A stretch of DNA of 64,000 nucleotides from Thermodesulfobacteriota bacterium. GTDB taxonomy: Bacteria; Desulfobacterota; Desulfarculia; JACQYL01. The DNA lies in NCBI GenBank assembly GCA_963675595.2, contig CAXXLZ010000002.1:1184001-1248000 (forward strand). The letters run 5' to 3'. Shown here piece by piece: positions 13,230 to 55,519 of this stretch. The translations under genes and the position numbers were made by a program. The notes under the pieces are model-generated. The model had not been told where the DNA came from and did no database searches. It worked only from the letters and a program-made list of their open reading frames with translations. How positions within the stretch are numbered: position 1 is the first letter of the stretch; the number at the start of each line of letters is the position of its first letter.

Positions 13230-15253
<2,024 letters not shown>

Positions 15254-30839: not shown

Positions 30840-30896
30840 TGATTGGCTCTCCTCTTCGTTGCGGCATCGGAAATGATAACCGGGTCTCCTTCCACT

Positions 30897-31526: not shown

Positions 31527-31571
31527 GGCTTTTTCTCCTTTCATCTCCGGTCGTTTCACTTGCCGACGCGA

Positions 31572-32438
31572 TCAACGGCGTTTTCTTCTCCGAAGGCCCA
31601 CCAGTCCCAACAAGCCGCTCCCCAACAACCACACCGCGGCAGGCACGGGCACCGGCGCCACGTCGGCAAAAGCGTCGATTTCGCCGCCGGAGAATCCGTC
31701 AACGCCTTCCACCTTCACATACTGAATCCACTCGAACCCCGATTCGGCCAGGTCAAGCCCAACGCCGCCCGCGGAGCCGTCATACAAAAGCATGGCCTCA
31801 TAAGACGTGCCGGCCGCGGCGAAATCCGCCGCCGTCAGGTCCGGATTCACCGGTTTGGCGTAATCGTTTTCCTGATCCGTCCAGCCGTTCCCCGTGGCGT
31901 CATAAAGGTCCGGGTCCCAAACCCAGGGATTGGTCGGGTAATAGTCGTCCCCATAGGGGCCGTCGACATAGGTGTACCAGTCGATGCCGTTCTGACTTAC
32001 GGAGATCTGCAAAGGCTCCGCGAACACCCCACCTCCGATCCCATAGGCCCTGTGATCCGTGTCATCGTAGACAAATCCGCCGTATCCGGCGAAAAAGGAG
32101 TTCCCGTAGACAACGAGGTCCAATCCATACGGATTGTCGGCGTCGTCGGTGACCTGATGATCGAACTTGACCACGGCCCAGTCCCCCGTGCTGAAGGTGG
32201 TGATGGCATCGTCTCCCCAGGCCGCCTCCACAAGACTCACATGGCTCGTTCCCCCGCCCCACGCCGGAATGATCGTGGTGGGTTTTCCCAAAAGGTCGTT
32301 TGCATCGTTGTAAAGCCCGGAACCGTCCAGGCTCGCGGAACAATCCACCAACTCGGTGGCGAAAATCGAGGCGTGAGCCTGTCCGGCCGCCAAGATCAGC
32401 ACCGTGCAGAGCAGGACGAACCTACCTACCATTTTCAT
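31572..32438 (-). CDS. VPxP-CTERM surface protein, BtuH-like domain
   Basis: Signal peptide; GDWAVVKFDH..DLVVYGNSF..EPLQISVSQNGIDWY; VPVPAAVWLLGSGLLGLVGLRRRKRR. Confidence 0.85.
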   Translation of the reverse strand: MKMVGRFVLLCTVLILAAGQAHASIFATELVDCSASLDGSGLYNDANDLLGKPTTIIPAWGGGTSHVSLVEAAWGDDAITTFSTGDWAVVKFDHQVTDDADNPYGLDLVVYGNSFFAGYGGFVYDDTDHRAYGIGGGVFAEPLQISVSQNGIDWYTYVDGPYGDDYYPTNPWVWDPDLYDATGNGWTDQENDYAKPVNPDLTAADFAAAGTSYEAMLLYDGSAGGVGLDLAESGFEWIQYVKVEGVDGFSGGEIDAFADVAPVPVPAAVWLLGSGLLGLVGLRRRKRR

Positions 32439-32469
32439 TCGATTCTCCCTTTCCTCCTTTGCGCCCTCA

Positions 32470-33090
32470 TCATCCGACGGTCGTCCTGCGCCTTCTCCTG
32501 AGTCCCGCCAGACCGACCAACCCGCTGCCCAGCAGCCACACCGCGCCGGGTATGGGCACCGTGGAGCATTCTCTGACGATCCAGTTGTTGTTCACGATGC
32601 CGGCGGACTGGACCAAGCCCTGGTCTCCCGTTCTGCATTTCACGGTGCCCCCGAAGAAGTACACGCCGGCCACCTCGCCGGACCCGGTCACCCCGTACAT
32701 CCTGGGATAGCCCTTGAAATAATCGGTCGCCCCGAGGAAGCTCACCAGGTATTCGATCTCGTCCAGCGGCCAATCAGAGGGATCACCGCTCCTCCAGTAG
32801 CCGAGTTCAATGTCCGCGTTCACCAGAAGTTCAATCACTTCCGCCTTGGTGGCGTAGCGGAATCCCTCGAATTCTCCGCCATCCCCGAATTGGGTGGATA
32901 CATAGCTTCTCGTCATGCTCAGCCCGAAGGACATATCGAGCCATTCCAACCCGGTTTCCGTGTCCAAAGTGACGCTCCCAGTCCCGAAAACCGCATCGTC
33001 CCGTTCCAGCAGAGAAGCATGCGTTTGGGAAATCAGGAGCAGTGAAAGCACGAATAAAGACGCAAGTTGCACCCATCGTAATCTGCTCAT
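32470..33090 (-). CDS. VPxP-CTERM surface protein (DTETGLEWLD, Lcl/DUF1566-like domain)
   Basis: Signal peptide; TLDTETGLEWLD..FRYATKAEV; VPIPGAVWLLGSGLVGLAGLRRRRR. Confidence 0.85.
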   Translation of the reverse strand: MSRLRWVQLASLFVLSLLLISQTHASLLERDDAVFGTGSVTLDTETGLEWLDMSFGLSMTRSYVSTQFGDGGEFEGFRYATKAEVIELLVNADIELGYWRSGDPSDWPLDEIEYLVSFLGATDYFKGYPRMYGVTGSGEVAGVYFFGGTVKCRTGDQGLVQSAGIVNNNWIVRECSTVPIPGAVWLLGSGLVGLAGLRRRRRTTVG

Positions 33091-33124
33091 TTCTCAGCTT
33101 CCTTTTCTGTTTGATTTGTGCGCT

Positions 33125-33856
33125 TCAGCCGCGCATTCTGCGGCGAAAACCGATCAGACCCATCAAACCACTGCCCAGCAACCATATCGCGCCGGGAATG
33201 GGGACCACCGCCGCCTGTGCGGCCAAAGGAGTAATCGGCGCCGAACCGTCCCCGTATCCGGCAGTGCCGCTGAAACTCCAGCCGTCCCAGGAACCGTCCG
33301 ACAGATTGCGTGACGAAATCCCGTTTCCGGAATAGCCCCACTCGGAACCGCCGTCGCTTACCCAGTAACTCCAGTACCCGCTGTACCAGCCGTCCACGTA
33401 ATGATCGTCCGGGTCCTCGGGAGTCCCGTCTTCACCGTCCCATTCCCCCGGCACGTAACCGAACCCGTCATTGTCCAGGTCATAGCCGAAACCGGATACG
33501 GTGTAGGCGCCCCCGAACATGTCCCACCACTGCAGCCTGACGTACAGACGGGAATCGTCCCCGTCTAAGCCGCCCGCGTAGGGACCACCGCTCGCCGCAC
33601 CGTTTCCGAAAATAGCGGCGATCATATCGGCGCCGGTGGCCTCACCGTCCCATCGATAACCCCAAGCCAGACTCTCGGGTTCTTTGCCGTCGCGCCAGTC
33701 GATGACCATGGCGGCCTCATTGGAGCCTTCACCCACCCAGTAGGTAATGTCGTCAAAGCTGAAATCCACATACGGGTCCGCCGCGGCCGGCCCGCAGCAA
33801 ACCGCCGTCATCAGCAAAACCGCGGCGAATACCGTGGACAAATTCTTCATCTTCAT
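33125..33856 (-). CDS. VPxP-CTERM surface protein, DUF4430/transcobalamin-C-like domain; first gene of the operon
   Basis: Signal peptide from MKMKNL; DDITYWVGEGSNEAAMVIDW..LAWGYRWDG; GYWSYWV..WGYSGNGISSRNLSDGSWDGWSF; CTERM tail. Confidence 0.85.
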   Translation of the reverse strand: MKMKNLSTVFAAVLLMTAVCCGPAAADPYVDFSFDDITYWVGEGSNEAAMVIDWRDGKEPESLAWGYRWDGEATGADMIAAIFGNGAASGGPYAGGLDGDDSRLYVRLQWWDMFGGAYTVSGFGYDLDNDGFGYVPGEWDGEDGTPEDPDDHYVDGWYSGYWSYWVSDGGSEWGYSGNGISSRNLSDGSWDGWSFSGTAGYGDGSAPITPLAAQAAVVPIPGAIWLLGSGLMGLIGFRRRMRG

Positions 33857-34314
33857 TTTCAAGGCAACTCTCCTTGTGTGACGGAGCCTTCGCCATCGGA
33901 AGCGCTCCTCGTGCGCTATCACTTCTGTTCGTGCGTTCCTTCGCGTTCCGGCCCGGCGTTTTCGAAGGCCCACAAGCACGCTGCCCGGCGCCCACACGGC
34001 TTCCGGAAACGGACGCTTTATTCTTCGCATTGAATGCAGATTGGCTGATATCGCGAGGCGCGAGGGGAATCCGTGGAGAAAGTTCCCTTTCTCTTGGGAT
34101 TGACGGATACCGATGGATGGGTTATCCTAAGACTGTTCGTTCTCTCCTAGGAGAGGCGAACGGTACGCCCGGATTCGCGCCGGTGCGAAATTGGAAGGCC
34201 TGCATGGCGTCTTGGCGGAAGCGTGCGGGCCTTCTCCTTTTCTATCTTTTCTGTTCGAACGTTCTTCAGCACCTCCTTCCCATGGGCACGGCCCGTGCGT
34301 TTGCTTGTCCCCGC

Positions 34315-34466
34315 AAAAAAAAGGACAGCCGGGCTGCTGCAGAATGCGGCAACCCGGCTGTCCGGAGTCGAACCTGAAGCGTTTCCGGGAACACGCTTCC
34401 GTCCGAACGTCTTTAGGACCCGTGGCTTTCCGACCCCCGGTTTCCCGGGGTGTGGCTTTCTCTCAA
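34315..34466 (-). promoter_or_regulatory. c-di-GMP-I (GEMM-I) riboswitch with overlapping intrinsic terminator (predicted ON switch)
   Basis: Minus strand AAAG-CC-ACA-CCCCGG-GAAA-CCGGGG-GTC-GG-AAAGCC...GGTCCTAAAG...GGACAGCCGGGTTGCCG; terminator GGACAGCCGGGTTGC...GCAGCCCGGCTGTCC followed by a T run. P1 looks weak. Confidence 0.85.
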
Positions 34467-34621: not shown

Positions 34622-34682
34622 CGTTTACACCAATACCGTCGGCAATGCTTGTCCGATATTGCTAAAAACTTGGACAATGTTG
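34622..34682 (-). promoter_or_regulatory. 38-bp regulon motif copy (CTERM operon promoter) plus -10-like TAAACG
   Basis: CAACATTGTCCAAGTTTTTAGCAATATCGGACAAGCAT (34682 to 34645), then 17 bp, then TAAACG. Confidence 0.7.
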
Positions 34683-35074
34683 GCATCGGGCAGATTTTCC
34701 GTCTTCGGGGACTGAACCTTGCCGAAGAAAAACCCGGACCGAGCGCTTCGCGCTCAATCCGGGTCGGTTGGAGGTAGGCCGCTTCCCAGGGTGAAAGGCG
34801 GCTGGAAGGAAACGAGTCGTTATCAGTCGGAGAGGTGTAAAACGCGATCTCCCACGCATCGCGCTTCATCCCTCGTTACCGCGACGTCCTCCATGTGCGC
34901 TTCGTACATCGGAAATTGCGCGCCTTGCCTGTCATTGTTCTTCCTCCGTCCGCAAGACTCGTTCAATCAAAACGGATCGCCCCGACTCCGCCCATACGGC
35001 CGGCCGACATGCGGTGTAATTTCTCCGCTCGCAAGTCGCTTCATCACGAAACCGCGAAGGACCGATGCTCATTC

Positions 35075-35911
35075 TTATCCCGCCTTTTGATTCCGGGATC
35101 CGAGCAGCTTCCTTTCCGCTTTCATATAGTAGGAAGGCGCCACCCCCATGAGTCTCTTGAATATTCGAGTGAAATACGAGACGTTGTTGAAACCCACCGC
35201 GAAGCAGGCCTCCGATACGTTCATCTTTTGTTCCAGCATGAGAAGCTTCGCCGCCTCGATCCTCCTTTTGTTCAGATACTCACTGAAGGTAAGGGAAGTT
35301 TCCGATTTGAACACACGGGAAAAATGATACTTACTCATGCCGTTGGCCTTCGCCACCTGTTCCAACGTGATGGGTTGCATATAGTTCTGTTCGAGGTACA
35401 GAATGGATTTCTCCAGGTTGCGGGGAATCTTCCAATGTTCCCTGCGCAGGGAGACGATTCGATTCGATGGGTTGGACCCCATGCCGCGGAAGACGTGTTT
35501 GATATGGCCGAAGGCCAGCCGGTAAAAAAAATCTCGGAGTTTCTCGTGATGTTGAAGCATCACCAGGAAATCCTCGCTCTCTTGAACGTAGCAGGTCACC
35601 GGCTCCAGGCACAACAGGAGTTTGATGGACGGGCTTTCGGAAAGCACCTCCACCAGACCGAACCAATCTCCACGGCGTATCGTGCCGCATAACGTGCTGC
35701 TCTGGCAGGGGACCTCCCAATGAGCCGACCCGGATGCCAACACCCCGATCTGTTTCACCTTCTCTCCGTTTCGAAGCAGCGTGGACCCGGTGGGAAACAA
35801 CACGGGGCGCAAACCCAAAACCACCGATTTCACGGCCCCCTCGTTCAGATCGTTCAAGGGGCACAGCTCGTTCATTTCGGTTTCGACCTCAGCCCGGCAC
35901 ATCTTAGACAC
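35075..35911 (-). CDS. AraC-family transcriptional regulator with an N-terminal cNMP-binding(CAP)-like domain
   Basis: C-terminal ITLEQVAKANGMSKYHFSRVFK...VSEACFAVGFNNVSYFTRIFK; N-terminal FPTGSTLLRNGE..VLASGSA..TIRRGDWFGLVE resembles the cNMP beta-roll. Confidence 0.88.
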   Translation of the reverse strand: MSKMCRAEVETEMNELCPLNDLNEGAVKSVVLGLRPVLFPTGSTLLRNGEKVKQIGVLASGSAHWEVPCQSSTLCGTIRRGDWFGLVEVLSESPSIKLLLCLEPVTCYVQESEDFLVMLQHHEKLRDFFYRLAFGHIKHVFRGMGSNPSNRIVSLRREHWKIPRNLEKSILYLEQNYMQPITLEQVAKANGMSKYHFSRVFKSETSLTFSEYLNKRRIEAAKLLMLEQKMNVSEACFAVGFNNVSYFTRIFKRLMGVAPSYYMKAERKLLGSRNQKAG

Positions 35912-36117
35912 CTCTTTCGTTCCAAAAAAAAGATCTCACCTCGGACAACCAAGGCAAGACCTGGAACTCGCCGGTGAAGGACAGGATACACGGGGGCCCG
36001 ACGTCGCGCTTAGGGCAACGACCTCATGACCGGGACCCGGCGCTTGCGCCCGGTCCGGCCCGCTCGATCCTTCTCGGCATTCCACCATGCCTTGATTCCC
36101 GAGGGCATACAGTGGAG

Positions 36118-36285
36118 ATCATCTCGGCAGGTCTCCTGGCTTGTGGTTCGTCCTACTCGCCGCACCTTCCCGGACCGAAACGTCCAGTGGTGAATAGCGG
36201 CTTTCGTCCCCACACACAGTGGCGATCCCGCAGCGGCTTCCGCCCCGCTTTCCCTATTATGCCCTTACCGGGCGCCTGAGATGAT
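36118..36285 (-). promoter_or_regulatory. cobalamin (B12) riboswitch upstream of the AraC gene
   Basis: Minus strand P1 ATCATCTC/GAGATGAT, AGGCGC, AATAGGGAA, GCCACTGTG, CCACTG, GGGAAGG, B12 box AGCCAGGAGACCTGCC. Confidence 0.92.
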
Positions 36286-36358
36286 AACGGATGTCATTAT
36301 GCTACTAGGTACACTTCTTGTATACCCTCAACAGCGGCGGTTGGCAAACACGACCCGC

Positions 36359-36406
36359 CTCTGCTCTCAGCTCTCAGCTCTCTGCTCTCTGCTCTCTGCT
36401 CTCAGG
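36359..36406. repeat. heptamer tandem repeat (CTCWGCT) x ~6.7
   Basis: CTCTGCT CTCAGCT CTCAGCT CTCTGCT CTCTGCT CTCTGCT CTCAGG, at the PKD-gene stop. Confidence 0.85.
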
Positions 36407-39143
36407 AAATATCGTCAAACATCAATTCCACGGTCGTCTCAACCGTCCCGAAGTTGGGAATCCGTGTTTCCACGGTTCCGCTGCCGGCATCAACGGCACT
36501 CAAATCAAATGTGTAGTCTCTACCGTGCAGGTCGTTGGATACGGATATCCCGTCGGTGTAGTCCGGGTCCAGGAACACGGTATACCCTCCGTCTCCCATG
36601 GTCGCCACCACCACACAGGAACCCGCGGAGTACTTCTGCAAATACAGGCTGAAAACCCCGTCGGCGCTTTTCCAGATCCCGTTTCGAGGATAAGTATCCT
36701 CGAAATCCACATCCGCGAACCTGAGTTCCACGGTCTTGATCACCTCGTCGAACCCCGGCAGAGAAGCCGTCACCGTGGCGCCGGTCGCGTCCGCGGCCGC
36801 CAGGCTCAGGCTGAATCCCTTGCCGTCGATATCCTGCCCCACGTTGATTCCGTCCCTGTAATCCGTATCCAGAAACACCGTGTACGCACCGTCGCCCATG
36901 GTGGCGATGACGATGCACGAGTTCGTGTCGTATTTCTGAAGATAGAGGCTGAGCACGTCGTCGGCGCTCTTCCAGATCCCGTTGGAGGGATACACGGCGG
37001 CGGAAGAGGTTACGGTAATATGGTCCGTAAAGGTTTTGGTCACGGTTCCATAGACGTTGGTCGCCGTCAGGGTCACCGTGTACTTGCCCGGCTGTGAGTA
37101 TACATGCACCGGATTCTGCTCCGCACCGGTGCCTCCGTCGCCGAAAATCCATGTCCAGGACGTGGGCCCGTTGGTGGATTCGTCGTCAAAGGTCACCGTA
37201 AGAGGCGCCGGACCGCTGGTGGGCGTGGCTGAGAACCCGGGAACGGGCGGTTGCTCGGAATCGATCACCGTGATGTAGTCCGTGCGAACCTTGAAGTCGC
37301 TTCCGCCGTCATTGGAAACGGTCAACTGCACGGAATAGGTTCCCGGTTCGGTATAGGTATGAGACGGGGCCTGGTAGTCGGCCGTTTCTCCATCGCCGAA
37401 ATCCCAACTCCACTGAGTGGGGTCGTCGGTGGATTCGTCTTTGAACATCACCTCCAAGGGCGCCTTGCCGCTGGTGGGAGCGGCGCTGAAAGCGCAGGTC
37501 GGAGCCGTGGTCGTCCCCCCGCCGTCGGTCACGGTAATGTAGTTCTGCCTCGTTTTCTCATCGGTTCCCGCACTGTTGGTAACCTCGAGGCCAACCGTGT
37601 ACGTGCCGGGAGTCGTATATTTGTGCGTGGGATTTTGGCTCCCGCTCTGGGAACCGTCTCCGAAATTCCACACCCAACCGGTTGGAACGCCCGTGGAGGC
37701 GTCCGTGAACGTCACCGAAAGAGGCGCCGATCCGTTCAAGGGCGCGGCCGTGAAGTCGCTCACCGGAGTGACCGGAGTAGCCGCTTCCGTTACCGTGATG
37801 TAGCCCGTTCGCGTCTTGCTGTCGGAATCGCCGCCGTTGGACACCGTCAACGTGACGGAGTAGGTCCCGGGATATTCGAAAGTATGAGGGGCATTCTGTG
37901 TGATGGCAGAGGGTGAATCGCTGAAATCCCACTGCCATTCCGTGGGCGATCCGTCGGATAGATCGGTGAAATGAACGGTCAAGGGAGCCGTACCGGTCGT
38001 GGGGTCCCCGGAAAAGTCGCACACCAGGTTTTCCACGGCCCCCGTTACGGTAATGTAGCCCACCTTGGTTTCGGTATCGTTCCCCCATTGATTCTTCGCA
38101 TAAAGTGATACCGTATATACCCCGGGCATTGAATAGACGTGAGATGGATTTTCCTGTCTTATGATCTTCCCATCCCCCAGATCCCATTTCCAACTGGTGG
38201 GGTCGTTTGAGGATTGGCTGGTGAATTGTACGGTGAGGGGCGCGGCGCCCGTGGTGGGGGTCGCTGAAAAAGCGGCCACAGGCGGATTGCCCTCCACCGT
38301 GATGAGCGCTTCCCTGGTTTTGCTGTGGCTGCCGAAGGCGTTGGTCACCGTAAGCACCACGGTGTACACCCCGTCGTTCTGATACACGTGCGCCGGATCG
38401 GACTGGGTGCTTGTGGACCCGTCTCCGAAATCCCAATCCCACTGGGTGGGGTCCCCCTCGGACAGGTCCGTGAAGGACACGGTCAACGGTTTTTCACCGC
38501 TGGTGGGCGCGGCCGAAAAGTCCGCCGAGGGAATCGCCTCCGTACCGTAATAGTCCGGTCCCCCGTCCCCCAGAAGCACGGTCTTGGAGGCGTCGGTATA
38601 CATATCCAGTTCGGAAGGACCGCCGGCTACAAGAAAGTCCCACCCGTCCTGCTCAATGAATTCGATCCACACATCCTCCCCGTTGGCAAGGCCTCCGTCA
38701 TATTGGAAGGTGGCCGTGAACAGAAGAAAATCCTCTCCTTCACTTATGTCTTGATGCGGCCCATAGCCGAGCAAACTCCATTTTCCGATATGCCGTATGG
38801 CGCCGGCGTCGGCCTCCGGATATTTCCGAGACCCCTTTTGCTCATACCAGGCATTAGGGTCGAAAGGATAATAAAGCATTTCCGTTGGGCCATAGGTCAG
38901 ATACTCAAATGTCAACTCGTCACCGTCCGCCTGAGTATCATCAAACCCCAGAGTAAGGCCCCAGGCGTGCAACTCGTCGTCGTGTTCCGCGTGGAGGTAC
39001 ACTTTCGCCTCGAAGGTTTCTCCGTTTTCGAGGGGCCCCCGGGAACCCACGGGCTGCATCCAGAGGAAGTGAGCAAAACCGGGAACAACGGACAGGAACC
39101 CGAACATCACTAGGACCACAAATCCGAGCGTCAACCTTCGCAT
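36402..39143 (-). CDS. exported scaffold-like protein: cohesin-like domain + 6 PKD domains + 2 'GIWK' domains
   Basis: AGGAG RBS, signal peptide from MRRLTL; six W.W.F/L.D PKD repeats; N-terminal domain closely similar to 41404-42087; C-terminal tandem NGIWKSAD repeats. Confidence 0.9.
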   Translation of the reverse strand: MRRLTLGFVVLVMFGFLSVVPGFAHFLWMQPVGSRGPLENGETFEAKVYLHAEHDDELHAWGLTLGFDDTQADGDELTFEYLTYGPTEMLYYPFDPNAWYEQKGSRKYPEADAGAIRHIGKWSLLGYGPHQDISEGEDFLLFTATFQYDGGLANGEDVWIEFIEQDGWDFLVAGGPSELDMYTDASKTVLLGDGGPDYYGTEAIPSADFSAAPTSGEKPLTVSFTDLSEGDPTQWDWDFGDGSTSTQSDPAHVYQNDGVYTVVLTVTNAFGSHSKTREALITVEGNPPVAAFSATPTTGAAPLTVQFTSQSSNDPTSWKWDLGDGKIIRQENPSHVYSMPGVYTVSLYAKNQWGNDTETKVGYITVTGAVENLVCDFSGDPTTGTAPLTVHFTDLSDGSPTEWQWDFSDSPSAITQNAPHTFEYPGTYSVTLTVSNGGDSDSKTRTGYITVTEAATPVTPVSDFTAAPLNGSAPLSVTFTDASTGVPTGWVWNFGDGSQSGSQNPTHKYTTPGTYTVGLEVTNSAGTDEKTRQNYITVTDGGGTTTAPTCAFSAAPTSGKAPLEVMFKDESTDDPTQWSWDFGDGETADYQAPSHTYTEPGTYSVQLTVSNDGGSDFKVRTDYITVIDSEQPPVPGFSATPTSGPAPLTVTFDDESTNGPTSWTWIFGDGGTGAEQNPVHVYSQPGKYTVTLTATNVYGTVTKTFTDHITVTSSAAVYPSNGIWKSADDVLSLYLQKYDTNSCIVIATMGDGAYTVFLDTDYRDGINVGQDIDGKGFSLSLAAADATGATVTASLPGFDEVIKTVELRFADVDFEDTYPRNGIWKSADGVFSLYLQKYSAGSCVVVATMGDGGYTVFLDPDYTDGISVSNDLHGRDYTFDLSAVDAGSGTVETRIPNFGTVETTVELMFDDIS

Positions 39144-39219
39144 TCGTTCTCTCCTGAAATCGGAGTTAGGGATTCGGAGCATGGTGTACAAATACGTAAC
39201 CTGCTTTACCTTGCTGAAC

Positions 39220-39280
39220 ATTATGGATGAAAAATTCGGCCCATTCTTGTCCGTTATTGCTCAAAATCAGCATTATCTTG
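39220..39280 (-). promoter_or_regulatory. 38-bp regulon motif copy (PKD gene promoter) plus -10 CATAAT
   Basis: CAAGATAATGCTGATTTTGAGCAATAACGGACAAGAAT (39280 to 39243), then 17 bp, then CATAAT. Confidence 0.72.
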
Positions 39281-39413
39281 CTGTCTCGCCTTTATGCCCC
39301 GATTCTCGAAACGGATTCCATGCGTCCCATTCGGCCGTTCAACTGTGGGGAATATATATAAGGGATCCTCCGGACGGAAACCGATCCGGACCTCGCAAAA
39401 AAAAGCATGACGG

Positions 39414-39474
39414 CAAGGAAGTCCATATTTTCCGCAATATAAGTCCAGCATCCTTCCCAAAGACCGGATATACC
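39414..39474 (+). promoter_or_regulatory. 38-bp regulon motif copy (dockerin/cohesin operon promoter) plus -10-like TATACC
   Basis: CAAGGAAGTCCATATTTTCCGCAATATAAGTCCAGCAT (39414-39451), then 17 bp, then TATACC. Confidence 0.7.
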
Positions 39475-39508
39475 TCTCTCCAATAGTACGCGTCCGACGC
39501 ACTTCCAC

Positions 39509-39607
39509 TTTCGAAAAAGCCACACCCGTCGTGAGGCGGGGCCGGAAAACTTCGGGTCTCCAGAGAGACGGCCGGGTTGCCGAAAGGCAGCCCGGCTTTT
39601 GTTTTTT
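39509..39607 (+). promoter_or_regulatory. c-di-GMP-I (GEMM-I) riboswitch with overlapping terminator (predicted ON switch)
   Basis: P1 TTTCG/CGAAA; AAAAG-CC-ACA-CCCGTC-GTGA-GGCGGG-GCC-GG-AAA; GGGTTGCCG; terminator GCCGGGTTGCC-GAAA-GGCAGCCCGGC-TTTTGTTTTTT. Confidence 0.88.
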
Positions 39608-39775
39608 CCGGGCCCATGCGCGGGGGACGTTTGGAATGGAAACCCGAACCCGAAACCCAACCCCCAAAGCCCGCCTCGGTACGGGACGGCCGGCGGGTCG
39701 GCAAGACCCACGGTTTCACTCCGGAGTTCAAATCGAAACCGGAGGCAAGAACCCATCGGAACAAGGAGAAAGATC

Positions 39776-41275
39776 ATGACAAGGAAACACGCACGAAACC
39801 TTTTCATCCTGCTCGCCGCCTGCCTGTGGTTGTCGGCTTTTCCCACCACCGGGGCGGCCCAGGACTGGGCCACGTACGGTCTGCCGGCCAATGCGGTGCC
39901 GTTTGATCTACCCACGGTGCAGGGCACCGGAGCCGGCCCCAGTTGGTTCACCGCCGCGGACTTCTTCCCCGCGGCCTCCACGGGCACCATAGACGGGGGC
40001 ACCAACGTGGGCGTCCTGGACCTCAAGGGCCGAATCATCGCGGCCACCGGGGATCAAATCCTGCTGCAGCGCAACTACGGGTCCAGCAAGTTCGACGTGG
40101 TGGCCACCGTGCCCGGGATCATGGACCCCGCCTTTATTCACGTCTCCCCAAGCGGCACCAAGATCGCATTAGGCGCGGGTTACGGAGCGCCATTGGTCAT
40201 CATCGACCCTTCGGTCCTGAGCATCCAGAACCCGCCCCTGCTCTGGACCGGGTCCACCCCCATCAACGGCGTGACCTTGTTCCCCGAGGTGAACTTCTAT
40301 GACGCGGATTGGGTCGACGATCAGTTTATCGTAGTCAACGGAGGCCAGTATCCCTTCGGGGATCCACCGCAGTACGCCAGCGGAGCCGGCGTGGTGGACA
40401 CCGACGACCCCGACCCGCTCAATCACGAAGGTACGCGCATCATCGACAGCATACCCGGGGCCTCCGGCGACGTGGAGGTGGACCAGTACGGCAACCTGTA
40501 CACGGGCATCGGGTACGGATCCTCATCCACCACGGGGCAGATCAAGGTTTGGGACGCATCCGAGTGGGACCCCACGGACCCGATTCCCATGGCGTACACC
40601 GCCAACACCAAGGTGTTGTTTGCCGGCAACGGCCTGCTCAGCGCGGCCCAGATGGGCACGGACCGAGACGGCAACCTGCATTTGGGCGGCGGCAACTACT
40701 TTGGTTCACCCCCGGACTACGGGTACGCGGCCCTCATCAACGTGAACGTCACCAACCGGGTGTTGTTGGGCGGAGCCGCGGCGGACCCTCTGAACACCAG
40801 CGAGTTTCAGGAGTTCCAACCCGATCCCTGCCGGAACGATTCGGCCACGGACGTCATGTACAGCGACTGGGGCGTGGGCCTCGCCGTGTACTGGAACCCC
40901 CTCACCCTGCCTCCCAGCTGCGCCTCCGGGGATGAGTGGCATCCAGGAGTCATCCCCCGGGTGAACATCTATCATCCCGCCGGTGCGCCCGACGATGACG
41001 CCGACGGGGTTCCCAACGTGTCGGACAACGCCTATCAGACTCCCAATGCGGGTACGGGACAGCAGGGCGCCGACGCGGATGGGGATGGATGGGCCAACAT
41101 AGCGGATGCCGATTTCGACAACAGCGGAAGCGTGGGCATTCCCGATTCGAACTATTTCCGCAACCACATCGGTACGTCGGACCCGGACGCGGACCTGGAC
41201 AGCAACGGAACTGTGGGTGTTCCCGACTCGGGGATATTTCGAGGTTTGATCGGCAAAAACGCACCATACTATTAA
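39776..41275 (+). CDS. exported beta-propeller-like protein with a TSP3-like Ca-binding segment and a C-terminal dockerin-like (twin EF-hand) domain
   Basis: AAGGAG RBS, signal peptide; DPAFIHVSPSG, GASGDVEVDQYGNLYTG blades; DDDADGVPNVSDN; DADFDNSGSVGIPD...DADLDSNGTVGVPD. Confidence 0.82.
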   Translation: MTRKHARNLFILLAACLWLSAFPTTGAAQDWATYGLPANAVPFDLPTVQGTGAGPSWFTAADFFPAASTGTIDGGTNVGVLDLKGRIIAATGDQILLQRNYGSSKFDVVATVPGIMDPAFIHVSPSGTKIALGAGYGAPLVIIDPSVLSIQNPPLLWTGSTPINGVTLFPEVNFYDADWVDDQFIVVNGGQYPFGDPPQYASGAGVVDTDDPDPLNHEGTRIIDSIPGASGDVEVDQYGNLYTGIGYGSSSTTGQIKVWDASEWDPTDPIPMAYTANTKVLFAGNGLLSAAQMGTDRDGNLHLGGGNYFGSPPDYGYAALINVNVTNRVLLGGAAADPLNTSEFQEFQPDPCRNDSATDVMYSDWGVGLAVYWNPLTLPPSCASGDEWHPGVIPRVNIYHPAGAPDDDADGVPNVSDNAYQTPNAGTGQQGADADGDGWANIADADFDNSGSVGIPDSNYFRNHIGTSDPDADLDSNGTVGVPDSGIFRGLIGKNAPYY

Positions 41276-41403
41276 GACGCGAAATTCCAGGATCAGCGGA
41301 CAAGACTAATCAGCTATGTGCGTCGAAGGAGTTCAGTCCCTTGCTGTGCGAACGAATGAAAGGTTCTTGAGCCGTCCAAACCCACTACTTAGGAGGATAC
41401 TTC

Positions 41404-42087
41404 GTGAAAAAGACAACATCTCTACTGACCTTTATGCTCTTCGTGGCGTTTTTTACCTGCACTCCCGTGTCGGCCCACTTCTTGTGGATGGATCCTATCG
41501 GCATCCAGGGGGCCAACGTCGGGGACCAAGTGAGCGTTTCCGTGTACCTCCACGCCGAGCAGGATGATGAACTACACGGATGGAGTGTTTCATTAGGCTT
41601 CGACGACACGTTGGTCGACGGCGGTGAACTGACCTTTCTGAGTCTTACTTACGGCGCTACCGACATGCTTTTCTCTCCCTACGACCCGAATGCCTACTAC
41701 GAAGAGGGGGCTTCTCAAAAGTATTCCGTGGAAAGCGCTATTCGGAGGATATCTAAATGGAGCCTGCTCGGATATGGCCCACATCAAGATATATCCGAAG
41801 GAGATGACTTTCTTCTCTTCACGGCCACCTTCCAGTTCAACGGGGGGGACTTCGACGGGGAAGACGTTTGGATTGAGCAGTTCCCGGAAGAGGGATGGGA
41901 TTTCGAGAATGCCGGCGCTCTTCTATCACTGGACATCTACACGGACAACACCAAGTCCCTCTTGCTGGGGGACGGGGGCCCGGATTACGGCTCCAATGTG
42001 CCCCTGCCCGCGGCCGCTTACCTGATGGGCTCGGGTCTGGTGGCTCTGGTGGGAATCAGAAGAAAAAGAAGGAAAGCGGCCCTGTAG
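41404..42087 (+). CDS. cohesin-like domain protein with a VPLPA-CTERM anchor
   Basis: AGGAGG RBS, signal peptide; VSVSVYL..GWSVSLGFDD..LTF..LFTATF; VPLPAAAYLMGSGLVALVGIRRKRRK. Confidence 0.82.
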   Translation: MKKTTSLLTFMLFVAFFTCTPVSAHFLWMDPIGIQGANVGDQVSVSVYLHAEQDDELHGWSVSLGFDDTLVDGGELTFLSLTYGATDMLFSPYDPNAYYEEGASQKYSVESAIRRISKWSLLGYGPHQDISEGDDFLLFTATFQFNGGDFDGEDVWIEQFPEEGWDFENAGALLSLDIYTDNTKSLLLGDGGPDYGSNVPLPAAAYLMGSGLVALVGIRRKRRKAAL

Positions 42088-42407
42088 ACGACAGGGCGCT
42101 GATAAGCCGCCGTGAGGCACGGCGACCCAACGCACTCGCTGAGGGGCCGGGGGAACGGCTTCACCTCCCACCACCCCCCAAGCCCTTCCCAACATAGGCT
42201 CACCTGATTCGTCGGCCCAAGCCGGGGCCGGCGAATCGGTTTTCCGGGGTCCGACGCAACGGCCCGCCCCGGACTTCCCGTGTACTCGCCATGCTTTGGG
42301 TCGGGTTTCGGAGAACCGGAGTCCGGGAATGGCCTTCGGGCCCTTTCACCGCGTAATCGCACACAGCCGAGGGGTAACGCACCCCCGAATTTTTCGCGAG
42401 GTATCCC

Positions 42408-42965
42408 ATGAAAAAACTCTGGATGATCGCCGTCTCTTTTCTCGTAATCGTGGTCGTGGTTGTCATGCTGACCTGGGATGCGGACCATCGCCGCGCGTCC
42501 GATAAGGAAAACGGCCCGGACATGTCCGCGGTTTCCGAGGAGGTTTCGATCCCCGAAAGCACGCAAACGAACCGGGACGATTCCGCCCCGGCCGAAGACA
42601 CTCCCTCGCTCCCTCCATCCGATTCCACGGTCACGGCACAAAAGCCCAAGCCCAAGTCGTACGAGTTCGACGAGGCGGAGTGGGAATACGCCGTAAACAA
42701 GGAGTTCGAGGCGGCGGCGTTGGAGATTTTTCCCGTGTATACCGTTCAGACGCATGATCCCAGGCATCCGGAGGAATTCGGTCCCAAGGAAGGCGAAATA
42801 TGGGTTCGCATCAAACCCGAGGCCGCCCTGACGTATCAGGACGTCATGGCCGAGACCGCCGAATTGTATCGGGAGCTGACCTATCGTCAGGGGCCCGTGA
42901 CGGTGATGCACTGGGTGGGCAATCGGCCGTACGCCAAGCTCTCGTTTTCCGGTGAATACGAGTGA
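42408..42965 (+). CDS. hypothetical membrane-anchored protein
   Basis: GAGG RBS, N-terminal TM helix, Pro/Ser/Thr linker, small globular C-terminal domain. Confidence 0.75.
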   Translation: MKKLWMIAVSFLVIVVVVVMLTWDADHRRASDKENGPDMSAVSEEVSIPESTQTNRDDSAPAEDTPSLPPSDSTVTAQKPKPKSYEFDEAEWEYAVNKEFEAAALEIFPVYTVQTHDPRHPEEFGPKEGEIWVRIKPEAALTYQDVMAETAELYRELTYRQGPVTVMHWVGNRPYAKLSFSGEYE

Positions 42966-43156
42966 TGCACCGCGGATCACTCGTCTCATCACCGCCCGGA
43001 TCACCGGCCGAGAAATCTCTATCGAGGCCTTTGATCCTCGGTAGACCGGAAGGCGTCAAGACAAGACCCCGAGAACCCGATGTTCCCGCGGGTTCCTCCT
43101 TTCCAAGTCACAAAGAGGATTCGGGTGTACCCACTGAACTTAAAGGATGCCAACTC

Positions 43157-44227
43157 ATGCTGAAGCAAACCTTTCGCATTCTCGTGATTCTCTCGGTGTT
43201 CTGCGGCACCGTGTGGAACTCCCCCCTCCATGCTGAGGACAATGGCGCCGGAACGCCTGTCATGGTGTTCGACGAGGCGGCCGGCGACCCTCCGACCGTG
43301 GTTCGAGGAGAAATCGCCACGCATGTGTTCACCTTTTCCAACAAAGGCTCGGCGCCGCTGATCCTGTCGGACGTATCTCCGGGCTGCCGTTGCACCGAAA
43401 CGGCCTACGACAAAACGGTCCTCCCCGGCCGCAAGGGAAGGATCACCCTTACCATGGACACCGAGGGCTTCACCGGCCGTACCGGTCTGGACGCCGTGGT
43501 GACTTCCAACGACCCCGAAACTCCAAGCCGGAAGATCGAGGTCGCGGTCATGGTTCTCCCTCTCATCGACCTGCAACCCGACCGCGTGATCCTCTCCGGT
43601 CCGGCGGGTAAGGTTCTTGAGAAAACGCTCGTGATTCGCAGCAACATCCAAGACCCCCTCCAACTGGGGATCGACGAGGAAACCGTTCCTCCTGAAATTA
43701 CCTGTGTTCTCAGTCCGAAGGAACCCGGCAAATCGTATCTCTTGACCGTTCGGAACAAGAACGAGACACCGAACGTGTATCGCAGGACCTTTCAGATCAA
43801 GACCAATTACGCGCGCCGGCCCACCCTCAAAGTGCCCGTTTTCGGGCGCATCCTATCCGAAGTGGAAGTGACGCCCAAGTCGGTCGACTTCGGTCAAATT
43901 CGCAGGAAACGCTATGCCGCCTTGATGAAGAACCCGGATGAAGATCCCGGCCCGGCCGAGCTGTCCTCACTGAGGGAAGAACTCGCGAAGGACGTTTTCG
44001 TACGAGGGAATCTCGACCAACCATTCGAAATCGAGAGGGTGGAAATCGACCAAACCCTTTTTCATACGGAAGTCAAATCCCTGGAGCTCGGAAAGCACTA
44101 CTGGATTCGCATCACACCCTTGCCGGCGCGATTGAAATCCGGGCTTACGGAAACCCGACTGAAAATCCACACCAATCATCCTCGGTTTTCCACCATGGTT
44201 GTGCCGTTGCGAGTCATGGCGAACTAG
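43157..44227 (+). CDS. DUF1573 (Ig-like) domain exported protein
   Basis: Signal peptide; HVFTFSNKGSAPLILSDVSPGCRCT..VLPGRKG, VTSNDP. Confidence 0.82.
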   Translation: MLKQTFRILVILSVFCGTVWNSPLHAEDNGAGTPVMVFDEAAGDPPTVVRGEIATHVFTFSNKGSAPLILSDVSPGCRCTETAYDKTVLPGRKGRITLTMDTEGFTGRTGLDAVVTSNDPETPSRKIEVAVMVLPLIDLQPDRVILSGPAGKVLEKTLVIRSNIQDPLQLGIDEETVPPEITCVLSPKEPGKSYLLTVRNKNETPNVYRRTFQIKTNYARRPTLKVPVFGRILSEVEVTPKSVDFGQIRRKRYAALMKNPDEDPGPAELSSLREELAKDVFVRGNLDQPFEIERVEIDQTLFHTEVKSLELGKHYWIRITPLPARLKSGLTETRLKIHTNHPRFSTMVVPLRVMAN

Positions 44228-44343
44228 CCTTGCCGTTAAATCGGCCAAACTCCATTCCGAAAAAATGGACCTTTCTCGTCAAGGAGGTGCGCCAAGTACA
44301 AAGTTGAAACAAGCGTCCATCGCAAAAAAAGCATAGCAAACAA

Positions 44344-44404
44344 CAAGAAAGTGCAAGTTTTGAGCAAGATAGTGCGATCATCCCTTTGAGACATCCATTA
44401 GAAT
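44344..44404 (+). promoter_or_regulatory. 38-bp regulon motif copy (flp/tad promoter) plus -10 TAGAAT
   Basis: CAAGAAAGTGCAAGTTTTGAGCAAGATAGTGCGATCAT (44344-44381; direct repeat CAAGAWAGTGC with 21-bp period), then 17 bp, then TAGAAT. Confidence 0.75.
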
Positions 44405-44482: not shown

Positions 44483-44650
44483 ATGAAATTCCTCAAAAGA
44501 CTTTGGGAAGACGAATCCGGCGTAACCGCCATTGAGTACGCCTTGATCGCCTCCCTGGTGGCGATTGCGGCCATAGCGGCGCTTACCAATCTCGGTGACG
44601 CGATTACCGACAAATTCGAGAAGATTATTGAAAGCCTTCAGGGGGCGTAG
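44483..44650 (+). CDS. flp: Flp family type IV (Tad) pilin, 55 aa
   Basis: Manual translation MKFLKRLWEDESG|VTAIEYALIASLVAIAAIAALTNLGDAITDKFEKIIESLQGA; G/xxxxEY motif; AGGAGG RBS; below the ORF-track length cutoff. Confidence 0.95.
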   Translation: MKFLKRLWEDESGVTAIEYALIASLVAIAAIAALTNLGDAITDKFEKIIESLQGA

Positions 44651-44911
44651 TCGCCGCAGTGTCGGTCTATCACGGGGATATTCCCAAACACCCCCTCGCC
44701 CCTTTTCAGAGCCAACCCCAAAAGCACCCCCTCGGGGCGATGAGCACAGGGCGGGAATGCATGTTGGTTCTCGAAACGCCCCATCGAGACTGCGCCAAGG
44801 CCCATGCCTTTCGGCCGGAGGGAGGTGCCCCCGCCTGAGAAGTGTGGAAGGGATCGAAGAATCTCCCACTCAGAGGGATTCCATGATGGCCCGAACGGAT
44901 GAATTCCGAAT

Positions 44912-45325
44912 ATGACAGCTCATCAATCCAAGTGCAGGTCGAGGAAAAGACAAAAAGGGGTTTCCTGCATCGAGTTCGCCATGGTGCTTCCCGTCTTGCT
45001 CCTCATTCTTTTCGCCATCATGGAGTACGGGTGGCTGATGGTGCATCAGATCGTTCTGATCAACGCCGTATCCACGGGCGCACGAGCGGCCATCAGGGCC
45101 AACCCCGAGGAACTCGCCCCATACACGGCGAAAGACTACACCGTGAAGGCGTTCTGGATCGGAACGCTGACCCGGGATCAGGTGCTGGCGGAGATGCCGG
45201 CCGATAATCCCAAACGGGTTTACGTGTCCGTACCCGCTTGGGACTACGAACCGATCACGCACTTCCTCCCATCGGCGCTCCTTCCAAAATCCCTGAACGC
45301 CGCGTCGGTCATGGTGTTTCCGTGA
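44912..45325 (+). CDS. tadE: TadE-like minor pilin
   Basis: QKG|VSCIEFAMVLPVLLLILFAIMEYG..GARAA. Confidence 0.9.
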   Translation: MTAHQSKCRSRKRQKGVSCIEFAMVLPVLLLILFAIMEYGWLMVHQIVLINAVSTGARAAIRANPEELAPYTAKDYTVKAFWIGTLTRDQVLAEMPADNPKRVYVSVPAWDYEPITHFLPSALLPKSLNAASVMVFP

Positions 45326-46635
45326 GTCCCCAAGGCAAGAACACATCATTGGTGAAAACGAGGGGCGTCGTCATCCTGGCCCTGGGCCTTGTTTTCGCAA
45401 TACTCGCCTACAAAGCGGTTTCACGCCTCGTCGAGAAACCTGAGTCGCCTCCGGTTCGGGCGGTGATGGCCGTGGAGTCCACGGCCGCGGGCGAACCCCT
45501 GTTTCGAAGGAAGCTCGAAGTCGTGACCCGCCCTGCCGGGGAACTCCCCGCCGGCACGTTCTCCAAAACGGAACAGGTGGCTGGGAGAATCGCGGCACGT
45601 CCCATTGAAAAGGGAACTTTCGTCACCAACGATCATCTCGTTACGGAGACCACCCTTTCACAGCAAAGCATTTCCCGACGCCTCAGCCCCGGCCGGAGAG
45701 CCTACGCATTAAAAGTGGATGAAGCTTCCGGAATATCGGGTGAACTCGTTCCCGGAGACCTGGTGGACATCATCGCCACAAGCGCCTTGTCCGGCGCCCT
45801 CGAGAGTCGGGTATCGCGCGTGGTGCTCCGGAAAATTACGGTGCTGTCCGTGCGACAGGAAAAGAAGGGAGGACTCTTTCCGGGCGGCCCGGACAAGACC
45901 GGCCGCGTGACTGCGGTCACACTGGCCGTGAACCCGGACGAGGCGAACGTACTGGCCGCATCCGAGGGAGCCGGCCTCCGCCTGGTCGCCCGTTCCCGAG
46001 CCGGGGGCGAAGGAAGCGACGAAGAATTCGTCTACTCTCCCTTAACCGGACCCAAGACCGTTTCCGAGCTGCATCGGCTGTGGCAAGAGCGGGACCTCGC
46101 GCTCAACCGGCGTATTCCTCATGGCATGCGCGCCGTTACCGTCCAAGTATCCGTCGCGGACGGCATATGCGGCCGACTGGCCTCCGGTAACAAAGTGGAT
46201 GTCATCGCCGTGACTCAGACCGGAGACCTTTCCACCGAAGGAGACGGACCTGGAGCCATGGCCACACAACTGGCAACGGCCCGGATGGCCAAGACGATTT
46301 TTCAGAACGTGGAACTCATGGCCGTGGAGGACGAGCTTGAAGGCTTGCCCGGAGCTCCGGAGGGCGATGAGCGTCTCGTGGCCCTTCTCCTCTCGCCTCG
46401 GCAGGCGGAAGGTCTCATCTCCGTGTCGCAGGACCCCGCCTACAAACTTAAAATTGTGCGGAGGAACCCTGCCGACACCGAGATCGCCGACACGCAGGGA
46501 GAAAAGATCAGGGAACTCTTCTTTGAACCCGGCGAATTGGTCTATCAAGTGGAAGTACACCGAAGAGGCGGAGTGGAGATCGAAAATTTCAAGGACCCGC
46601 GGGTTCAACAAAGTGCGCACTCCTCGGTGCGCTAG
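45322..46635 (+). CDS. cpaB: Flp pilus assembly protein CpaB/RcpC with a duplicated RcpC domain
   Basis: TM + SAF + PGRRAYAL..LVPGDLVDII + second HGMRAVTV..LASGNKVDVI; GTG overlaps the tadE stop. Confidence 0.85.
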   Translation: MSPQGKNTSLVKTRGVVILALGLVFAILAYKAVSRLVEKPESPPVRAVMAVESTAAGEPLFRRKLEVVTRPAGELPAGTFSKTEQVAGRIAARPIEKGTFVTNDHLVTETTLSQQSISRRLSPGRRAYALKVDEASGISGELVPGDLVDIIATSALSGALESRVSRVVLRKITVLSVRQEKKGGLFPGGPDKTGRVTAVTLAVNPDEANVLAASEGAGLRLVARSRAGGEGSDEEFVYSPLTGPKTVSELHRLWQERDLALNRRIPHGMRAVTVQVSVADGICGRLASGNKVDVIAVTQTGDLSTEGDGPGAMATQLATARMAKTIFQNVELMAVEDELEGLPGAPEGDERLVALLLSPRQAEGLISVSQDPAYKLKIVRRNPADTEIADTQGEKIRELFFEPGELVYQVEVHRRGGVEIENFKDPRVQQSAHSSVR

Positions 46636-46748
46636 TAAGCGGAGGCTGCATGATACACCCCGAACCCGTCTCCCTGTACCGAAATGAGCCCGCCCATCAT
46701 CTCATGACGTCCCGTAACCGGCCTTTTTCAACGGACTAAGGTGCGCAT

Positions 46749-48128: not shown

Positions 48129-48270
48129 GGTGCTTCCAGCGGATCGGAGTACCACGGGCAATGAGGTTCCCTAAGGTCGAGCAATGGGTTTGCGGCTGAA
48201 ACGCAAGAGGAAAGGCTTCCACGGAAATGAGGGCCGTGACGCTCGTCACGGTCAGGCGGACAGGAAAGCT

Positions 48271-48663: not shown

Positions 48664-48668
48664 TCGGA

Positions 48669-50120: not shown

Positions 50121-50150
50121 TTCCTAACGGATTTCCCCAAAGCGAGGACG

Positions 50151-52744: not shown

Positions 52745-52747
52745 AGC

Positions 52748-53707: not shown

Positions 53708-53710
53708 CCA

Positions 53711-55449: not shown

Positions 55450-55519
55450 ACCCGGCAGGCCTTTTCCGGCGGACTGAACCAGGGGTTCCGGCATCCCCTG
55501 CCCTGAGTCGGATACGGTA

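Follow-up and report, generated by a model that had tools for sequence, protein, structure and literature searches.

A conserved 38-bp tandem repeat is the probable operator of an AraC-type regulator encoded behind a cobalamin riboswitch in a Thermodesulfobacteriota bacterium

We analyzed a 64,000-nucleotide stretch of a Thermodesulfobacteriota genome (the window; C2:1184001-1248000 of genome G000, which has 6.79 Mb in 3 contigs and 56% G+C) in which a 38-bp element recurs at the promoters of genes for secreted proteins with PEP-CTERM-type tails, a PKD-domain protein, a dockerin-like protein, and a Tad pilus. Judging from the sequence, the element is probably the class II operator of an AraC-type activator encoded among these genes, at 35075-35911, and part of a surface program gated by cobalamin (B12) and a cyclic dinucleotide. 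The element is a 21-bp repeat of two unlike boxes, stands at a fixed distance from a -10 hexamer without a -35 element, and adjoins the gene for a protein with two helix-turn-helix (HTH) motifs on a flexible linker, beside which the best site is found in six genomes; taken together, these properties point to an operator of that regulator. The four copies in the window and the hexamers that follow them are listed here, each site with the score that it reached when left out of the training set.

34645-34682, minus strand: candidate operator site s1, promoter of the PEP-CTERM operon; made up of two directly repeated half-sites; 36.3 bits
34622-34627, minus strand: -10-like hexamer TAAACG, 17 bp after s1
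39243-39280, minus strand: candidate operator site s2, promoter of the PKD-domain gene; 31.6 bits
39220-39225, minus strand: -10-like hexamer CATAAT, 17 bp after s2
39414-39451, plus strand: candidate operator site s3, promoter of the dockerin-like operon; 29.1 bits
39469-39474, plus strand: -10-like hexamer TATACC, 17 bp after s3
44344-44381, plus strand: candidate operator site s4, promoter of the flp/tad pilus locus; 32.4 bits
44399-44404, plus strand: -10-like hexamer TAGAAT, 17 bp after s4

The original prediction had named these four copies and the hexamer exactly 17 bp after each, and sequences, positions, and spacing proved exact. To obtain leave-one-out scores, a position weight matrix (PWM) was built from any three of the four sites and both strands of G000 were scanned (13,588,386 positions). 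Each held-out site ranked fourth, that is, first behind its three training sites, with 29.1 to 36.3 bits; the next-best position reached ~24 to 26 bits and the remainder ~20 or less. As the held-out sites top all nontraining positions, chance cannot account for the motif. The first position behind s1-s4 was C2:4131389-4131426 (s5), and another high-scoring one was C2:179511-179548 (s6). With a matrix made from all six, these were the only positions in the whole genome with at least 25 bits; a matrix that hits other DNA equally well would have refuted the prediction. The seventh-best position (44323-44360, 21.1 bits) is s4 shifted 21 bp upstream. The proposed regulon has six sites in G000, not four. 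The expectation that a matrix scan would recover further B12-related genes failed in G000, where the extra sites precede c-di-GMP-I-type riboswitches and PEP-CTERM genes, and held in the relatives described below, where motif sites stand before DUF4465 genes and before cobalamin riboswitches.

Ungapped alignment, of 11 sites at first and of 14 later, resolved the motif into a tandem direct repeat with a period of 21 bp, in which the pattern GCAA..T.C.AG.AT occurs twice and each of the two half-sites spans ~18 bp. Across the 14 sites, GCAA at positions 21-24 is invariant, and the corresponding first box at positions 0-3 is kept as G0 in 10, C1 in 12, and A2 and A3 in 13 sites each. Further conserved columns are T9 and C11 (12/14 each), T17 (11/14), T18 (12/14), C32 (13/14), A34 (14/14), G35 (13/14), A37 (13/14), and T38 (11/14), and several of these form pairs 21 bp apart (C11/C32, A13-G14/A34-G35, and T17/T38). 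The distance of 17 bp from the motif end to a TA.A hexamer is constant in all 14 sites and the spacer itself is little conserved; within the hexamer, the first T is present in 13, the second-position A in 14, and the fourth-position A in 10 of the sites. The bases at the predicted -35 position are the end of the motif, ..AGCAT, and are unlike TTGACA. Because the motif ends exactly 17 bp before the hexamer, it would occupy the place of a -35 element.

Two copies of an auxiliary element accompany the plus-strand sites.

44320-44343, plus strand: auxiliary element TCGC-A7-GCAT (itself 44320-44334) plus the next bases, 21 bp upstream of s4
39393-39408, plus strand: auxiliary element TCGC-A8-GCAT upstream of s3, 18 bp and not 21 bp from the motif, out of phase

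As had been noticed earlier, the element precedes both plus-strand copies, and these are the sole two matches of the pattern TCGCA{7,8}GCAT in all of G000. The copy at s4 reads as a putative third, weaker half-site in phase with s4. The element was found neither at the orthologue of s3 in the relative G002 nor at any of the other 12 of the 14 sites.

Conservation was assessed among 40 related genomes. The regulator was found at E ≤ 1e-20 in only one of them, G002 (67% identity), which belongs to another genus of the same family and carries the locus on an 11.2-kb contig in the same gene order. There, one motif copy (33.1 bits) and a c-di-GMP-I-GGC riboswitch precede the dockerin-like, PEP-CTERM, 185-aa, and DUF1573 genes; a second (16.5 bits) leads into the PKD gene, the cobalamin riboswitch, and the regulator; and a third (36.2 bits) stands before a c-di-GMP-I riboswitch and PEP-CTERM genes. 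A hexamer comes 17 bp after each copy (TAGACA, TATACT, and TATGAA). The motifs of the two genomes agree at 31, 27, and 29 of 38 positions (o1/s1, o2/s2, and o3/s3, respectively; 71 to 82%), compared with 16, 20, and 9 of 60 in the upstream flanks (15 to 33%) and 8, 10, and 6 of 17 in the spacers. We take this as a phylogenetic footprint, the motif being kept while its flanks diverged. For a wider search, we used R1, a sequence-only model of 61 positions built from 11 sites of G000, G002, and the Desulfobacterales metagenome-assembled genome L005, 9 of the 11 coming from the first two. In the 41 genomes (G000 and its 40 relatives), R1 gave matches at E ≤ 1e-5 only in G000 (6) and G002 (3), the training sites matching by construction, and these two are also the sole holders of the regulator at E ≤ 1e-20. 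Four partial matches with E between 0.014 and 0.098 were seen, in G036, G020, G000, and G005.

The candidate binder has an unusual architecture.

35075-35911, minus strand: AraC-type regulator; from N to C terminus, a sensor of the cNMP-binding fold, a long helix, a flexible linker, and an AraC domain with two HTH motifs

Its Pfam matches are PF00027 cNMP_binding (E 3.8e-8; 33.6 bits against a cut-off of 27.5), PF12833 (E 2e-23), and PF00165 (E 1e-21), the last two placing its C-terminal part with the two-HTH domains of the AraC/XylS type. The AlphaFold model (AF2; predicted local distance difference test score 83.5) shows a beta-barrel at residues 35-111, a long helix at 123-145, a disordered linker at 145-161, and a seven-helix AraC domain at 164-277. 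In Foldseek searches with the N-terminal part, GlxR and CRP came out best (E 1e-10, probability 1.00), and the cyclic-nucleotide-binding (CNB) domains of PKA, PKG, and HCN were also found; Pfam, model, and Foldseek thus agree on a CNB barrel with its long helix. The nearest solved DNA-binding domains by sequence were a response-regulator AraC domain, MarA, SoxS, RamA, and Rob, with E values of 1e-10 to 1e-8 for MarA, SoxS, and Rob. In an alignment of 18 family members (A2), the two recognition-helix regions are almost invariant, which fits the conserved motif. The sensor keeps a G-D-(F/W)-F-G turn, with G81 invariant and D82 in at least 90% of the members. The canonical CNB phosphate-binding cassette carries a conserved Arg. 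No conserved Arg column was found in the 20 residues that follow the turn in this alignment, and the sensor ligand is therefore probably not a cyclic mononucleotide held in the usual way. A homodimer prediction scored 0.15 against a mark of 0.42 and speaks neither for nor against dimerization. The architecture is rare: only 19 proteins among 5.8 billion clustered proteins matched at E ≤ 1e-33, none with a name finer than "AraC-like DNA-binding protein," and no NCBIfam equivalog reached its cut-off for the regulator. Among the 46 open reading frames (ORFs) of the window scanned against Pfam, the only other DNA-binding proteins were an HTH_3/S24 protein (1229-2197) and a sigma-54 activator (60848-62266). 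Both were set aside as binders, being distant from the sites and not conserved beside them.

Searching public genomes and 400 sampled genomes of the phylum for homologues of the regulator gave four further loci. Those in L005, G425, and G419 are 36, 35, and 32% identical, respectively. The homologue in G046 (L028 = G046:C296, 11056-11400, plus strand; 51 to 52% identity) is a 114-aa ORF holding the DNA-binding domain only, and tblastn found no sensor domain. When a PWM made from G000 sites only was applied to these four loci and to G002, the best match at all five lay just 3' of the stop codon of the homologue, on the same strand and 17 bp before a hexamer starting with TA. The scores were 36.2 bits in G002, 45.9 in G046, 20.8 in G419, 14.2 in G425, and 14.1 in L005. 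A second match of 14.2 bits in G425, tied with the first (L026 = G425:C87, 7601-7638), overlaps a riboswitch aptamer and was judged to be due to chance. In G046, the homologue lies downstream of tad genes, and the candidate operator behind it is the best copy of all those found, a near-perfect duplication of the half-site; in a whole-genome search with R1, this was the single match (E 1.4e-6). The best R1 match in G419 (E 4.3e-5) was a new site on the same contig, 17.5 kb from the homologue, which leads into cobalamin and c-di-GMP-I-GGC riboswitches and then genes for DUF4465-PEP-CTERM (E 3.7e-55), PEP-CTERM, and TSP3/dockerin-like proteins. A metagenome scan added one 2.4-kb contig (L008) with a 38% identical homologue and no motif match above 7.6 bits, a contig that may be too short to include the promoter.

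The arrangement around these homologues varies in its genes and repeats in its regulatory elements. Five of the six genomes (G000, G002, L005, G425, and G419) have a cobalamin riboswitch directly 5' of the regulator gene. The motif promoter that follows the regulator leads through a cobalamin aptamer and a c-di-GMP-I aptamer to PEP-CTERM genes in L005 and G425, into a cobalamin aptamer at the contig end in G046, and directly to a prepilin peptidase and tad locus in G419. In L005, the second-best match (10.7 bits) stands just 5' of the regulator's cobalamin riboswitch, an arrangement suggestive of autoregulation; the PKD gene intervenes in G000 and G002 between the corresponding site and the riboswitch, and the s2 promoter possibly also drives the riboswitch-AraC unit by read-through. 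In G425, the operon includes genes for a PEP-CTERM-tailed DUF4465 protein (E 1.6e-56) and for a TonB-dependent receptor. As a separate observation, G419 has a second cobalamin riboswitch, before a TonB-dependent receptor gene, immediately upstream of the riboswitch-AraC unit (L027 = G419:C3, 9485-11875, minus strand). The reading as one regulon, with the motif at the -35 position in the manner of class II AraC-type activation and the neighboring AraC protein as the likely binder, which we too infer, gains support from the 21-bp repeat with its fixed spacing to TA.A, the conservation at three promoters of G002, the motif beside homologues in four more distant genomes, and the co-occurrence of regulator and motif in the 41 genomes.

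Riboswitch aptamers and terminator-like hairpins were found in the leaders of the regulator and of its candidate targets.

36110-36294, minus strand: aptamer of a cobalamin riboswitch, in the AraC gene's leader; RF00174, 103.2 bits (gathering threshold 31.5), model positions 1-189
35931-35962, minus strand: terminator-like hairpin and T run, downstream of the cobalamin aptamer and upstream of the AraC start; 14 pairs, then TTTTTTTT
36296-36324, minus strand: match to a sigma-70-like promoter, TATACA-17-CATAAT, just 5' of the cobalamin aptamer
34731-34765, minus strand: strong terminator-like hairpin after the AraC gene, separating it from the s1 promoter; 16 pairs, 10 of them G-C
34344-34465, minus strand: c-di-GMP-I-type (GGC variant) aptamer in the s1 leader; RF03167, a marginal 60.9 bits against a gathering threshold of 59
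39510-39585, plus strand: c-di-GMP-I-type (GGC variant) aptamer in the s3 leader; RF03167, 68.8 bits
39570-39597, plus strand: terminator-like hairpin overlapping the 3' end of the s3-leader aptamer

The terminator between the cobalamin aptamer and the start codon of the regulator suggests an OFF switch, of which the hairpin at 35931-35962 is likely the expression platform. An ON switch is suggested for the dinucleotide aptamer, whose 3' end overlaps a terminator-like hairpin. The promoter match at 36296-36324 may be the regulator's own promoter; it is a match to the consensus only, in a region where three sigma-70 consensus matches were observed and 4.0 were expected from shuffled sequences. 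No motif of at least 7 bits was found directly before the cobalamin riboswitch (36295-36401). A search of G000 with RF03167, which like RF01051 is a model of the c-di-GMP-I clan, gave 11 c-di-GMP-I-GGC riboswitches. In four of them, those of s1, s3, s5, and s6, the motif lies 58 to 179 nt before the aptamer; motif matches in the 350 nt upstream of the remaining seven do not exceed 3.1 bits. Three c-di-GMP-I-GGC riboswitches without an upstream motif lie within 4.5 kb of one another on one strand (C2:1933850-1938286). Cobalamin matches were absent from the s1 leader at E ≤ 1, and hence no tandem of cobalamin and c-di-GMP-I aptamers was found there, and from the s5 and s6 loci at E ≤ 0.01.

The candidate targets behind the four sites of the window are of different kinds.

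29970-34030, minus strand: target operon of s1; encodes five secreted proteins, each ending in a PEP-CTERM-type tail
36402-39221, minus strand: target of s2; secreted protein with six PKD domains (Pfam PKD_4, E 7e-108)
39599-44227, plus strand: target operon of s3; dockerin-like 558-aa, PEP-CTERM, 185-aa, and DUF1573 proteins
44483-57037, plus strand: target of s4; flp pilin (44483) and tad locus with Flp, TadE, two RcpC, secretin, ATPases, TadB/C, TPR, and TadG

The PEP-CTERM matches in the s1 operon are mostly under the Pfam cut-off, and the tails are visible in the translations. For one of these proteins (33125-33856), the Atlas gave only unnamed or PEP-CTERM clusters and NCBIfam only sorting-tail matches below cut-off, neither of which indicates a function. 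Between the end of the s1-leader aptamer at 34344 and the likely first PEP-CTERM start at 33856, there are ~490 nt on the minus strand (33857-34343) in which neither a notable ORF nor an Rfam match at E ≤ 1 was found, except a subthreshold ctRNA on the opposite strand; the counterpart in G002 is ~217 nt long. Judging by the signal peptide and the G002 orthologue, translation of the PKD gene probably begins at the ATG at 39143, which is ~70 nt downstream of the predicted transcription start. For the dockerin-like 558-aa protein, the Atlas gave dockerin/NHL clusters (score 0.88), which serve as leads only, and there was no Pfam match at E ≤ 0.1. The 227-aa PEP-CTERM protein of the same operon (41404-42087, plus strand) shares 55% identity, across 209 residues, with the part of the PKD protein at 36402-39221 that precedes the PKD domains. 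G002 also has a pair of PEP-CTERM and PKD proteins that share this N-terminal domain, which is without a Pfam match. The tad locus includes two consecutive RcpC/CpaB genes (45238-46635 and 46749-48128, plus strand), each with SAF and RcpC domains. Outside the window, s5 and s6 each lead via a riboswitch into PEP-CTERM genes, that of s6 being a paralogue of 30897-31559 and 33125-34030.

From these data we propose the following circuit, in which the binding by the regulator, activation rather than repression, the signs of the riboswitches, and the transcription starts are inferred from the sequence. Most likely, two DNA-binding domains, probably of a dimer, would occupy both half-sites, and the bound regulator would bring sigma-70 RNA polymerase to the promoter in the manner of class II AraC/XylS activators. 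Six promoters of G000 would be switched on in this way: those of the PEP-CTERM operon, the PKD gene, the dockerin-like operon, the tad locus, and the two unlinked PEP-CTERM genes. The cobalamin riboswitch with its terminator would gate synthesis of the regulator, whose level B12 would probably lower, and c-di-GMP-I-type riboswitches would gate four of the six target transcripts again. The surface program would then be expressed when B12 is low, the signal of the regulator is present, and the dinucleotide is high. In this circuit, the link to B12 would run through the riboswitch on the regulator leader and, in the relatives, also through those on target leaders.

Several observations weigh against an activator operator bound by this regulator. 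The usual -10 element ends in T, and the hexamer does so in only 5 of the 14 sites. CAA(G) boxes recur at positions 1, 11-12, 22, and 32-33 of the motif, ~10.5 bp apart, which would also suit a protein of the OmpR/PhoB type. As the G046 homologue is a DNA-binding domain alone, retention of the site does not require the sensor. The sites in G425 (10.7 bits with R1 and 14.2 with the PWM) and L005 (14.1 and 10.7 bits) are individually weak: at such scores, ~0.1 to 0.6 matches per locus are expected by chance (~0.13 at ≥14 bits per 26.5 kb, as estimated from G000), and they count only because of their position and spacing. With R1, the G425 genome had no match at E ≤ 0.05. As the training sites of R1 come mostly from G000 and G002, its search of the 41 genomes speaks to the absence of the motif elsewhere, not to its presence in these two. 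Finally, G001, a 95% complete genome of the same family, has no R1 match, no regulator, and no dockerin-like gene; as all three are missing together, co-occurrence among close kin cannot separate the regulator from another factor encoded in the same island.

Such a factor, possibly of the OmpR/PhoB type and encoded elsewhere, could own the motif, the nearness of the AraC gene merely reflecting a shared gene island. Besides the phasing of the CAA(G) boxes, the gain and loss of motif and regulator together with the whole island in close kin would fit this. Yet five further genomes, of which three belong to other families of the phylum, have the best site directly 3' of the AraC homologue, and it keeps this position where the neighboring genes differ (tad in G419 and G046, and PEP-CTERM in L005 and G425). 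Moreover, the scan of the 46 ORFs of the window found no winged-helix response regulator, and a 21-bp unit with the unlike boxes GCAA and T.C.AG is as expected for a two-HTH AraC domain; we thus give another binder little credence. That the AraC protein does bind the motif and represses, or acts both ways, blocking the -35 position until a ligand releases it, is also unlikely, with some room left for it. In favor of repression, the site covers the place where a -35 element would lie, and operators that overlap core promoter elements are typical of repressors. However, with ..AGCAT in that position, the promoters should be poor without an activator. The sigma-70 scan found no full promoter among the motif promoters, its sole nearby match preceding the B12 riboswitch, and tandem direct repeats that end at about -30/-35 are the layout of AraC/XylS activators. 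It is, in our view, very improbable that no dedicated factor is involved and that the motif is a promoter segment copied within the island or the promoter of an alternative sigma factor. The genes of s1 and s6 are paralogous and both have a riboswitch, and that one unit of promoter, leader, and gene may have been duplicated. Copying does not account for the rest: the similarity ends at the motif edges, flanks and spacers being unrelated; the motif precedes unrelated genes (PKD, flp, and dockerin-like) and is kept across genera with its flanks randomized; and its internal 21-bp repeat is not explained by the copying of promoters. A 38-bp block upstream of an ordinary TA.A -10 element fits no known sigma layout.

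The architecture inviting comparison is that of class II AraC/XylS activator promoters, as known for AraC at araBAD, XylS at Pm, and RhaS. Shared with these are two half-sites of ~17 to 18 bp in direct repeat with a 21-bp period, the proximal one at the predicted -35 position, a recognizable -10-like hexamer without a -35, and a two-HTH domain joined to the sensor by a flexible linker. The regulator, which would bind in the same manner, differs in that its sensor is a cNMP-binding fold rather than a cupin-type or other usual AraC sensor, in that its mRNA is under riboswitch control, and in the small size of its family (~19 detectable members). Its N-terminal beta-barrel and long helix resemble CRP/FNR proteins (GlxR and CRP); unlike these, it has an AraC-type output and not the CRP winged helix, a direct repeat and not a palindrome as operator, and no conserved cassette Arg. 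MarA, SoxS, and Rob offer the closest solved DNA-binding domains, and the G046 homologue is a stand-alone 114-aa domain like MarA and SoxS; those proteins bind one asymmetric box as monomers, in contrast to the two tandem boxes here.

Riboswitches rarely control transcription factors, and a literature search turned up neither this regulator family nor the operator, nor any AraC regulator under the control of a cobalamin riboswitch. The closest precedent is Desulfobacca acetoxidans, for which Sherlock et al. 2022 (PMC9481103) describe tandem adenosylcobalamin/c-di-GMP-I riboswitches as "NOT A AND B" gates and propose the cobalamin riboswitches as OFF switches. The present locus is of the same phylum and likewise clusters cobalamin and c-di-GMP-I-type riboswitches within a few kilobases, and tandems of the same type, cobalamin followed by c-di-GMP, are found in L005, G425, and G419. 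In the window, unlike in the D. acetoxidans tandem, the cobalamin riboswitch is on the regulator leader and not in tandem on the target leaders. The passages available describe RNAs only, with no protein regulator or shared promoter motif and with the word AraC solely as part of author names, and they report the link between B12 and cyclic-dinucleotide riboswitches in the phylum only as an unexplained oddity (PMC9481103). Among the genes that the motif leads to in relatives, DUF4465 has been reported as a B12-binding domain (PMC13398666), in an article whose available text mentions neither PEP-CTERM nor "Desulf." DUF4465 domains with PEP-CTERM tails occur in G425 (L026 = G425:C87, 10519-13546), where a TonB-dependent receptor comes after one of them, and in G419 (L032 = G419:C3, 106-981), which points to exosortase-anchored corrinoid binders in the phylum.

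Other features of the window are a group II intron on the minus strand (13230-15226), with Rfam domains at both ends and a reverse-transcriptase/maturase ORF at 13386-14837, and two DDE transposase genes, also on the minus strand (21019-22170 and 25695-27305). Two DUF3786 proteins flank the region at a distance (586-1227 and 58391-59386, both minus strand), one of them fused to an Fe-S cluster motif. Among the PWM matches was also a 38-mer that bears no relation to the motif and recurs without change at 14 or more places on all three contigs of G000; it probably belongs to a multicopy mobile element.

A speculative extension, which we regard as possible and on balance doubtful, is that the regulon is an attachment and scavenging program of B12 starvation, run by a two-layer circuit with three inputs: cobalamin, sensed twice in the relatives as in a coherent feed-forward loop, a cyclic dinucleotide, and a third ligand at the noncanonical CNB domain. 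If so, exosortase-sorted surface proteins and Tad pili would attach the cells to surfaces or partners and capture corrinoids, and the output would include, in the relatives, B12-binding DUF4465 proteins and a TonB receptor. The PEP-CTERM, PKD, and dockerin-like proteins of the window would then be new players in corrinoid capture or partner adhesion. Why B12 matters to this regulon is suggested by the DUF4465 proteins and the TonB receptor that the relatives have in it. The near-perfect duplication in G046 offers a clean case for half-site recognition by AraC proteins. For the phylum, the locus would supply a missing layer: a CNB-fold AraC family behind a cobalamin riboswitch, with an operator that ties this family to the same leaders and genes. 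It would make up a defined and testable circuit of one protein, a 38-bp site, six promoters, and three kinds of riboswitch, which may govern the pili and exosortase-sorted surface proteins of these relatives of sulfate reducers.

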